Shown here piece by piece: positions 23,092-26,232 of a DNA stretch of 42,476 nt. The notes beneath the pieces were generated by a model. It worked only from the letters and a program-made list of their open reading frames with translations. It made no database searches and had not been told where the DNA came from. Position 1 is the stretch's first letter. The number at the start of each line of letters is the position of its first letter. Source of the DNA: Halocafeteria seosinensis (lineage: Eukaryota); contig LVLI01000263.1 of NCBI GenBank assembly GCA_001687465.1, positions 124,001 through 166,476 on the forward strand, given 5' to 3'. The position numbers and the translations under genes were made by a program.

Positions 23092-26000
23092 ATGACAGAT
23101 ATCGCAGCATTTCAAACGGACGCTTCCAACGCTGCGTCGATAGTGTCCTATGTGTTGCTGAGCATTGGTCTTATAGGGTCTATTGCTCTTCTCTATGTTA
23201 ATGTCACGGGCAATCAAAGAACAGTGGACTTCATAATCGGAGCGCCAGTAAGTTGCAAGACACAGTAGGTTCATTTCCAATATTCTTTTACGGACGGCTC
23301 ACTGCAGGCTCTTATAATTTCTACGTTCGGCTATTCCGCCTTAGTTACGAGCCATTTAAAAGGGTCACCTTGTTGGATCAGTTTTGCAACAGTTATAGGA
23401 GCTTTCAGTATCACTTACGCGTTTCTCATTGCAAAGCGTAAGTACTATTCAAGAATTGCATGGCATTCGTGTGATCATCCCATACTCCCACCACAGTATC
23501 CACATTGAGAGTTATATACTTGAACAAAACATTGAAGAAGTTTGCAACAACTCGATCACCCGTAGCTAAAAGAGTTTTGCTGTGGATGATTCCCGATATT
23601 CTCATCACAGCAGTATGGTTTGGGGTTGATTCGGACATCCGGGATACACTAAAAGTTTCCCAGTTCACAATAATTAACGTGAGTCGCTGCCATGAATTTC
23701 TCAGTGTACGTTAAGGACAAACAGAGACCTGGTTGATAATGCTTCGCAGAACGTAGACGGAAAAGTTTTCGACAGTGAGTTTGAGAAGACGGTGAATTGT
23801 TCACTTCCAAGGAGCTTAAACTCTTTGTTTCCTTTGCTAATAATTGTGTATCGGATATTGCAACTGATTTGTATGTTCCGTCTGTACTGGAGTATGAGGT
23901 TGATCAAAGCACCAAAGGTGGTGCAATGCTTTCTTGGAGGCTTGTCTTCGTTCATTGCATTAACACTAATTATGTCTGGTCTTCCGACTCTCATATTCAC
24001 TAGTAGCCTCACTTTGCGAATCGTTTCATGGGAAATCTCCTTGTTCTTCTCCTTACACTTTCTAATATGGGGAAATTATGGACATCAGATGTTCAAGAAG
24101 ATCGGTAAATATTTCGGGAGTGATAACGAGATGCTAAGTGACCTGGATACCGCGGTGGCAACGAGTACTAAATCGAATGTATCAGATGCAGTTGGCGAAT
24201 GTGTGGAACGTCTACACTCAAGGCTAGAAAATTGGCCTTCTTTCGTTGTTGCCTACTGTTCAGACAAGTATGGAGCTGACAACATTTCTGCGGCGCTCCG
24301 GGAACGGATGCCTGCGGTCCCGTTTGTAAGTACTTCAGGCGACTTCTGGAAGAATGACGAAAATTTACTCTGTATAGTGTATTTTCCAATTCGAAACTCA
24401 GATAGGGATGAACAGCATACTTGGAGTTTTCCAAAATACTTCCTTCGTTTCATCAACAAACGGATACTATCTTTCTCTATGGGGCGTGTATGATCCTGAT
24501 GGCGTGTACAAAGTGGCGTCGCAACAAGTGCACAGTGGTCCGACTGACCCCTCAGACAATGGTGAGTCGAGTTTAGCGGTCAGCTGTCGCCATAGCTTTT
24601 GACCCATTTTCCCTGCAGATACTGCAATCGCAAAACACAATAATGTGGCTAATGGCTCAGCAATCGATGAAGTTGATGAAGACGTACCCGACGAAGGAGG
24701 CCCGCCGACTGCTCAATCCTTGCCTACTTCCAAGACCAATGATCCATTTACGGTTGGCAACGGATCGAAGACAATAAAAGAAGCAGTCAGCGCAGGTTAC
24801 AAAGAAACCTGTAGCTTTCGAAGCGAGCATAAAAAATCTGCGGAACGGGATGATCGGACGAGTGTAGCTAAACATAGGAACAGCAAACTAGATCCGGACT
24901 TCGTTATCTGCTTTTCTCAGGGACTCGAGGAGGAAGCCGTGGCTGAAGCATTGGACGAAACGTTGCCCGAATCCACCTCCGTCACAGGAGGAAATATTAC
25001 TTCTGGTTATATCACAGGGACATTTGGGATTTCTACTCAAGTTCAAGGAGTAGTTTTCAGCAGTGAATGTGCGAATGCTGCGGAGCATACGATAGTACTC
25101 GCTTCCTGCTGGCCATCAGTGAAGACTAAGTGCGTCATTGCAAGTGGCTATATTCCCCTTCCTCAGAGTGCCGCTGTTCGAAGGGATGACGCGGAAATAG
25201 GTAGAGAAATTGAAAGACTAGATAGAATCGCTGCAGCAGCGAAGTTAGATAACTGGACTGGAAGGGATGTCTTTGACGGCAAGCAAAGCACTCGGAGACT
25301 CTCATTGGTAAGTACCTGACTTCAACGAGTAGCACGTATTCTGTGGATTGATTTCTTCGATTTTTCATGTGAGCAGACTCAGTCCAAGACCTTCCAAAAG
25401 GCAAATTATGCCTTAGCGCGCCTATTGGGCAACGACCTATACGGACAAACATGTTACCAGGGAATCGAAGTAAGCCGATACTGAACCATTTGTATGTAAT
25501 GGCATTATTATTACGTCAGCACTTTATCCACAGTTGTTAAAATCGAATAGTGACGGTTCTGTAACCGTCGGGGCGAACGTACAGAATGGAGAGAAACTCA
25601 CCCTTATGTCGACAACCGTGTCCCAACAAATTAGCATTATAACAGCCTCGATGGAGAATCAGATCAAAGAGCTAGGCTCAGTTAATTGTCGAGGAGCATG
25701 TTTTTGCTATGCTCATTCATGCGTCAAGCTGCTTGGAGATGAAGTACAAACGTTCAGTCAGCGCTTGTCCGCCACGCTGAAGAGGGGCGCATTTACAGGT
25801 ATGATAGGGGCATTACCGAAACAAGCAAGTTGCCTCGAAGCATTCAGCACCATAAATGTTTTTGCAGGAGCATGCTGCTCCGGCCAGTATTGCACGGACA
25901 CCAATGGCAAGGTCCGGTTTTGGACGGGACAATGTAGTGCCGTTTTGTTCACAGATGAGCCTAAGTTTCCGCGGTACACATTTCGCCGGGCTACCAGAAA

Positions 26001-26232
26001 GTCGACTTCTTCAGGGACTCGTTACTGTCCATGTTTGCAAAGTCGAAAATCAAGTAGCACCGGCAAAATATTGCCCATGTCACGTACGAAGAGCACCACT
26101 TTCGAACCCTTGAGGCGTTCTGTTATCACTCATACTGGTGGTTCCAAGAAACCCAGTGTAACTTCAAATAGAAAAGTATATGGAGCGAAACCATTCTCCA
26201 GCACGATGGGTCACTTGTTCAGCAAGCATTGA
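23092..26232 (+). CDS. Class C GPCR-like 7TM domain fused to C-terminal FIST_N/FIST_C (NosP-like) domains; ~870 aa, 8 introns
   Basis: GT-AG introns 23248-23307, 23438-23496, 23679-23749, 24326-24401, 24562-24618, 25308-25376, 25470-25533 and 25799-25867 give one open frame. It has 7 hydrophobic helices with class C motifs, then FIST motifs. The start codon is uncertain (frame open ~25 codons upstream). Confidence 0.75.

Follow-up and report, generated by a model that had tools for sequence, protein, structure and literature searches.

We examined a 42,476-nucleotide (nt) stretch of the Halocafeteria seosinensis genome (assembly GCA_001687465.1, contig LVLI01000263.1, positions 124,001 to 166,476 of the forward strand; hereafter the window, whose own numbering is used throughout) and, within it, a predicted gene that would encode a seven-transmembrane (7TM) domain resembling those of class C G-protein-coupled receptors (GPCRs), followed in the same chain by a FIST module. 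The window is gene-dense eukaryotic DNA with a GC content of ~47% and short introns, and the genes around the candidate are ordinary ones, encoding Rtr1/RPAP2, a beta-adaptin appendage domain, an aldo-keto reductase, mitochondrial carriers and a cyclic-nucleotide-binding kinase. Removing eight GT-AG introns from 23092..26232 leaves 2616 nt, or 871 amino acids and a stop codon, with no internal stops. This agrees with an earlier reading made from the letters alone (the sequence-only reading), which had proposed eight canonical introns and a frame of ~870 amino acids and whose quoted motifs are all present. We consider the 7TM-FIST architecture very probably real, and the pairing apparently has not been described before.

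The fusion itself lies within a single exon. Exon 4 (576 nt) holds, in one stop-free stretch, the second extracellular loop (ECL2), transmembrane helices 5 to 7 (TM5-7, to ~24070) and, from ~24140, the start of the FIST module, which comprises its first strand-helix-strand-helix; the fusion is therefore independent of splicing. Two relatives of this exon were found, P0001 in a scan of 1.84 billion representatives (48% identity, E = 4.8e-54) and P0004 in a profile search (71% identity, E = 2.8e-91), the latter with a cluster mate, P0005, that is 96% identical to it. Both P0001 and P0004 are gene calls on unspliced DNA, and their similarity to the present gene, limited to exon 4, stops where splice sites are predicted. 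Neither shows an alignment gap between TM5 and the donor of intron 4, and the three sequences are identical at 39 of 83 positions in TM5-7, at 18 of 37 in the linker and at 19 of 48 in the FIST start, with nine invariant residues in the third inner loop and C173 kept throughout. The scan returned three matches at E up to 0.001; two of them, P0002 and P0003, are repetitive proteins and were rejected as chance matches. Three sequence clusters were found for the family, which is accordingly narrow. No full-length or other fused homologue was present among 977 candidates of 337-2000 amino acids retrieved with exon 4, or among 2662 candidates of 250-2000 amino acids retrieved with part of exon 6, which in both cases is weak evidence, and relatives were absent from the JGI metagenome contigs, prokaryote genomes and plasmids searched.

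The gene model was assessed against the introns of neighbouring genes. The predicted introns are 57-76 nt long, start with GTAAG (five), GTGAG (two) or GTATG (one) and end in CAG without exception. Among 12 neighbour-gene introns identified by contig joints (11 among the 15 joints listed, of 34, and one other), 11 are 62-86 nt long, all end in CAG, and the starts are GTAAG (eight), GTACG (three) and GTGAG (one); by this match in size and splice signals the predicted introns are typical of the organism. Two junctions have comparative support: the acceptor of intron 3 carries a Q codon and P0004 begins one residue past it, while P0001 and P0004 both diverge just past the intron 4 donor. For the junctions other than those supported by exon 4 we infer splicing. 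Each junction offers 2-17 alternative frame-preserving GT-AG pairs, such that the exact positions stay predictions, and intron 8, in frame and stop-free, could be retained.

Contigs from four runs of one study (X1-X4, unstranded and indicative of presence only) were also compared with the model, with X2-X4 read as RNA because they skip neighbour-gene introns that X1 keeps; X1 may have supplied the DNA of the present assembly. The X2-X4 contigs include no junction of the 7TM-FIST gene and leave 22592-25247 without cover, which is not evidence of silence. They do run unspliced through predicted introns 7 and 8, which counts against the model and, together with the alternative splice pairs, would suit a partly wrong one, in which there were two genes in place of one, or a pseudogene, or other splicing in the 3' half. 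The unspliced contigs of all three runs, however, stop within predicted intron 6, at 25332-25333, and those of X3 and X4 pass through the minus-strand CT..AC intron of the neighbouring gene, so that the unspliced cover is likely the antisense 3' end of that neighbour. Junctions 4, 7 and 8 moreover sit in stretches that align to FIST only once spliced, and the 7TM-FIST junction lies inside one exon whose boundaries are common to the relatives; an error of this kind in the model is thus highly improbable.

Table 1. Predicted exons of the 7TM-FIST gene and overlapping contig cover (positions in the window; aa, amino acids).
Feature	Position	Strand	Basis
Predicted nine-exon gene, 7TM - FIST N - FIST_C - basic Ser/Thr-rich tail	23092..26232	+	Open frame, splice signals
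Exon 1, aa 1-52: acidic N-terminus (14 aa), TM1, first loop	23092..23247	+	
Exon 2, aa 53-95: TM2 (weak), TM3 with C74 (3.29), Y89 (3.44), K95 (3.50)	23308..23437	+	
Exon 3, aa 96-156: second inner loop (basic), TM4 with D129 and W136 of class C references, ECL2 start	23497..23678	+	
Exon 4, aa 157-348: ECL2 with C173, TM5-TM7, linker, FIST start	23750..24325	+	Relatives, NosP model, Atlas rows
Exon 5, aa 349-401: remainder of first FIST repeat; low-complexity insert from ~24540	24402..24561	+	
Exon 6, aa 402-631: acidic insert to ~24752, second FIST repeat (21-aa charged insert), start of pre-FIST_C subdomain	24619..25307	+	
Exon 7, aa 632-662: FIST middle subdomain	25377..25469	+	Weak collinear alignment
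Exon 8, aa 663-750: FIST_C, S724-C725 kept	25534..25798	+	Pfam FIST_C
Exon 9, aa 751-871: FIST_C end (to ~25956), then tail; stop 26230-26232	25868..26232	+	
Joint-free contig cover (X2-X4), likely antisense 3' end of neighbour over exons 7-9	25332..26546	-	Continuous with CT..AC intron of neighbour in X3, X4

The minus-strand neighbour (25332-26546 and 26246-28683) has features of its own. Its product combines a Ser/Thr-rich stalk, one hydrophobic helix and a C-terminal beta-adaptin appendage domain (E = 9.4e-10), and an adaptin-appendage tail on a membrane protein is unusual in itself. The gene appears to have a 3' end of ~900 nt that lies antisense to exons 7-9 of the 7TM-FIST gene.

Within the N-terminal part of the protein, hydropathy gave seven hydrophobic stretches in residues 15-263, of which TM2 is the weakest, as the sequence-only reading had seen for the first ~270 residues. 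The inner loops contain 12 Lys or Arg and no Asp or Glu, compared to six and nine in the outer parts, and this charge bias predicts an N-out/C-in topology and hence a FIST module on the cytoplasmic side, where it had been placed before. The domain is spread over four exons, and as Pfam scans run exon by exon gave no 7tm_3 match, we compared the spliced domain with GABA-B-type 7TM frames from metagenome contigs; of 70 loci, 8 and 13 provided frames of sufficient length for the two profiles used. The motif by which these references were found biases the set towards GABA-B; 11 of the 13 were scanned and all 11 are 7tm_3, genuine members scoring 119-225 bits on that model. Against the 13-sequence profile the spliced domain scored 13.4 bits, a value that none of 1000 full shuffles and none of 1000 segment-wise shuffles attained, and one other multi-helix protein of the window, which with the shuffles formed the controls, scored below zero. 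The hhalign comparison with class C was collinear over residues 10-221 (P = 2e-4) and above all 150 segment shuffles. C74 and K95 are 21 residues apart, which is the spacing between positions 3.29 and 3.50, and together with C173, the partner cysteine in ECL2, they align to columns invariant in the eight references; Y89 corresponds to 3.44 in the numbering of PMC11621567. As a lead only, an Atlas feature search with residues 1-118 of P0001 had 10 of 10 best family matches agreeing on 7tm_3, and the three rows listed were all 7tm_3 clusters (scores 0.80-0.82). These comparisons suggest that the domain is class C-like, at the level of a distant and weak similarity.

Several observations weigh against this assignment and against a receptor function. 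Pfam 7tm_3 (PF00003, cut-off 33.5 bits) was not hit by any single exon or by exon 4 of the relatives, and the 11.7 bits obtained on the eight-sequence class C profile, while beyond all 1000 full shuffles, were reached by 3 of 1000 segment shuffles. Position 3.53 is T98, such that R3.53 is missing, as are the Pro-Lys of TM7, present in 8 of 8 references, and ~10 residues that precede TM2 in the class C references, and G-protein coupling may have been lost with them. Asp and Glu are likewise absent from residues 204-235, which leaves no ionic-lock acid at 6.35. The class C hallmarks claimed from sequence thus held for C3.29, K3.50 and the ECL2 cysteine and failed for the acidic 6.35 residue, R3.53 and the TM7 Pro-Lys. 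Such losses, and the retention of just 20 of the 68 columns invariant in the eight GABA-B-type references, would be expected of a pseudo-receptor serving only as a membrane anchor for FIST, with no G-protein signalling. K3.50 is nevertheless kept, and TM5-7 is as conserved across the three sequences as the FIST start, beyond what an anchor would seem to need, which makes a mere anchor quite improbable. Sequence searches of the PDB gave nothing at E under 0.3. A structural model of exon 4, with a predicted local distance difference test (pLDDT) score of 42, was not used; in Foldseek it placed mGlu4, GPR156 and GABA-B chains at ranks 13-35 (E 2.1-2.7), and a wide structure search with it returned generic helices only.

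Only 14 residues precede TM1, and the free sequence upstream of the gene amounts to 523 nt (contigs of the upstream gene reach 22568) and has no long open frame. An upstream Venus-flytrap exon was rejected, as the room is too small for it; the sequence-only reading had come to the same view, although from an estimate of ~850 nt that proved too large. Its further proposal, that a receptor without a flytrap may be gated from inside the cell, does not follow from this absence, since GPR156 and GPRC5A-D also lack a flytrap and GPR156 is constitutively active (excerpts of PMC11621567).

The remainder of the protein follows the FIST pattern, as had been read from the letters. Pfam FIST (PF08495) matched exon 6 (E = 1.6e-4, 22.1 bits, cut-off 23.2) and FIST_C (PF10442) matched exon 8 (E = 1.2e-3, 19.4 bits, cut-off 28.5), each exon holding part of the domain and the two domains being ordered as in full FIST modules. 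We built a profile of 38 prokaryotic FIST proteins, 29 from one phylum sample and nine plasmid-borne (one of 30 genome loci had no frame under the filter, one split plasmid gene was excluded, and a stop was dropped from one plasmid frame). Residues 284-790 scored 22.9 bits on it, compared to 4.4 for the best of 1000 shuffles, and 27.2 bits with two inserts removed; the 29-sequence single-phylum profile gave 7-9 bits only, compared to a shuffle best of 5.8, and the nine plasmid proteins raised the score. The alignment by hhalign was collinear over positions 18-378 of the 384-position FIST template. At the N-terminal boundary, the end of exon 4 matched positions 1-51 of the NosP model (NF041558) weakly (E = 0.15), and an Atlas structure search with the P0001 model had FIST N clusters in its first three rows. 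Conserved FIST columns were kept at 15 of 41 positions, nine of them glycines (9 of 11 conserved glycines), and S724-C725 is retained in a column invariant in 38 of 38 references. Among the conserved charged or His columns, which are defined by conservation, none of nine is identical, and four of the eight fully invariant columns are lost. Taken together, these comparisons are indicative of a putative FIST module complete in length but degenerate. A structural model of residues 447-631 of exon 6 (pLDDT 50) was built on the FIST alignment and is circular in this respect; the search with it ranked FBXO22 second and third (E = 0.6) and gave YjgF/chorismatase at Z 3.6-3.9, none of these being significant.

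The FIST assignment has its own counter-evidence. Both Pfam scores are under their cut-offs, so that the profile check, on single exons, ended with subthreshold FIST and FIST_C hits and no 7tm_3, and the hhalign probability was 15% with the inserts in place, rising to 93% only after they were cut by eye. The count of lost pocket residues derives from an alignment of ~17% identity in which 29 of 38 references come from one phylum sample, and other residues might prove conserved in a FIST subfamily nearer to this one. Residues 284-790 also hold 17 Cys and 6 His, which could bind haem or metal.

These points bear on the reading, proposed from the letters alone, in which FIST is a working cytoplasmic sensor of a small ligand (haem, nitric oxide (NO), an amino acid or redox state) and switches the receptor from within the cell. 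The module is complete in length and order and rich in cysteine, retains the Ser-Cys pair and follows TM7 closely, by a conserved linker without gaps, in a protein that has no ectodomain; binding of NO or haem has been reported for FIST-FIST_C proteins of bacteria (PMC8846402). The specific claim of a NosP-like haem/NO sensor was not upheld, however, and NosP identity was rejected: exon 4 scored 11.1 bits on the NosP model compared to a cut-off of 450, no other exon scanned singly matched it, and the conserved charged residues are lost. The same observations argue against an inside sensor in general, as does the existence of flytrap-less class C receptors that carry no such sensor (excerpts of PMC11621567). 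Moreover, two characterised eukaryotic FIST proteins, FBXO22 and PsFYVE1, bind proteins, and the earlier statement that FIST domains are mainly prokaryotic sensors understates this eukaryotic side. We therefore consider an inside sensor unlikely. A version of it in which an outer flytrap was replaced by an inner FIST sensor of prokaryotic type (for haem, NO, redox or a metabolite, perhaps through its cysteines) that switches G-protein signalling, we regard as rather unlikely.

The explanation we tentatively favour is a new type of GPCR-bigram (a 7TM domain and an accessory domain joined in one protein), namely a predicted single-chain, flytrap-less class C-like 7TM protein whose degenerate cytoplasmic FIST module would regulate the inner face of the receptor by protein contact, not by binding haem or NO. 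A regulatory, partner-binding module is preferred over a haem/NO sensor because of the lost polar residues, the protein binding of FBXO22 and PsFYVE1, and the precedent of GPR156. A 7TM domain without the ionic-lock acid may, as in GPR156, tend towards activity without a ligand. FIST, which starts ~23 residues past TM7 on a linker of fixed length, would pack on the G-protein-binding face, as suggested by its closeness to TM7, the fixed linker and the nine invariant residues in the third inner loop. From there it could hinder G proteins or other partners from reaching the inner loops, and could itself recruit partner proteins in the way that the FIST module of FBXO22 does. The 91-residue C-terminal tail (28 Ser/Thr, 20 Lys/Arg and 2 Asp/Glu) is a possible phosphorylation target. 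A caution for the comparative part of this argument is that P0001 and P0004, known from exon 4 alone, could be paralogues.

Signalling could also run from outside to inside: a ligand would bind at ECL2 or within the helix bundle, and FIST would be an output arm that recruits downstream proteins, whether or not G proteins take part. GPCR-bigrams are usually understood in this way (PMC6033456), and such a mechanism would make use of the retained TM3-ECL2 cysteine pair, C74 and C173, and of the ~41-residue ECL2. The conservation pattern leans the other way, as ECL2 is less conserved relative to P0004 (15 of 24 positions identical) than TM5-7 (60 of 83), a weak argument given that loops vary generally, and as the invariant residues noted above belong to the third inner loop. 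An outside-in receptor of this type therefore also seems doubtful to us.

Our literature search found no earlier report of a 7TM- or GPCR-FIST pairing, by domain name or through PF08495, with architecture catalogues of the InterPro type outside the search, in line with the sequence-only reading, which knew of no description. The word FIST does not occur in the main text or five supplements of PMC5784254, nor in the main text of PMC12716839, whose domain tables, outside the search, could list the pairing. Known protist GPCR fusions carry enzymes inside and class C receptors a sensor outside, whereas here a module of sensor ancestry is predicted inside. If FIST does regulate the receptor, the protein would offer a one-chain model for the switching of flytrap-less class C receptors and a model for eukaryotic FIST roles beyond FBXO22. 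Both domains are very divergent and the family is narrow, and function is predicted here from sequence.

Other features were observed in the window. A very high-copy short interspersed repeat of ~74 bp at 34939-35012 had a summed X1 depth above 500,000 at its centre compared to ~118 in the flanks; it occurs in hundreds of contigs with differing flanks, has no Rfam match and is flanked by a 12-nt direct repeat (34929-34940 and 35019-35030). A 1267-residue plus-strand frame at 1567-5370 combines stretches rich in leucine, Cys-rich repeats of the Ephrin_rec_like family (E = 2.8e-7) and, towards its C-terminus, several hydrophobic helices; it is receptor-like and scored below zero on the class C profile. 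At 10441-11766 (+), a TFIIS central domain, an F-box and a C-terminal Cys-rich motif follow one another in one frame, and a 2066-residue open frame at 12516-18716 (+) matched no Pfam family at E 0.01. The multi-exon gene at 35700-38800 (+), spliced in X2-X4, encodes a cyclic-nucleotide-binding domain and a protein kinase in a cGMP-kinase-like layout.

Compared to known systems (cited sources in excerpt), the 7TM part shares with GABA-B and GPR156, as members of class C, the C3.29/K3.50 spacing, the Asp and Trp of TM4, the ECL2 cysteine and a Trp-x-x-Arg after TM5. Class C receptors without a flytrap are known in GPR156 and GPRC5A-D, and GPR156 is described as constitutively active, without an acidic 6.35 residue and tuned by its C-terminus (PMC11621567). 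The present protein resembles it in its short N-terminus and in the absence of the flytrap and the 6.35 acid; it differs in keeping the TM3 cysteine that GPR156 lacks and in carrying a predicted 490-residue FIST module in place of an unstructured tail. Its 13 bits on the GABA-B-type profile are far from the 7tm_3 scores of genuine class C members, and R3.53 and the TM7 Pro-Lys set it apart from the class C references. On the FIST side, bacterial FIST-FIST_C proteins are linked to NO or haem (PMC8846402, PMC8738867), and the module described here matches NosP and CdpA in having FIST N and FIST_C collinear, in its total length, and in keeping the structural glycines and the Ser-Cys pair. Compared to these, the Halocafeteria module has ~17% identity, two inserts, lost charged residues and a NosP score far below the cut-off, and it is joined to a 7TM domain, whereas NosP and CdpA work with a histidine kinase or a cyclic di-GMP enzyme. 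FIST likewise appears as an add-on module, a likeness drawn from descriptions, in FBXO22, where it recruits a protein and shows no evident pocket for a ligand (PMC11185555), and in the FYVE-FIST protein PsFYVE1 of Phytophthora sojae, where FIST_C is required for protein binding (10.1101/2021.12.02.470886); neither has a 7TM domain. The overall layout, a single chain with a 7TM domain at the N-terminus and a cytoplasmic accessory domain at the C-terminus, is that of the GPCR-bigrams of oomycetes and other protists (PMC6033456, PMC5784254), whose types (PIPK, INPP, AC, PDE, TKL and AP) are defined by catalytic add-ons, whereas the accessory domain predicted here, FIST, known from the literature as a sensor or protein binder, is non-catalytic.

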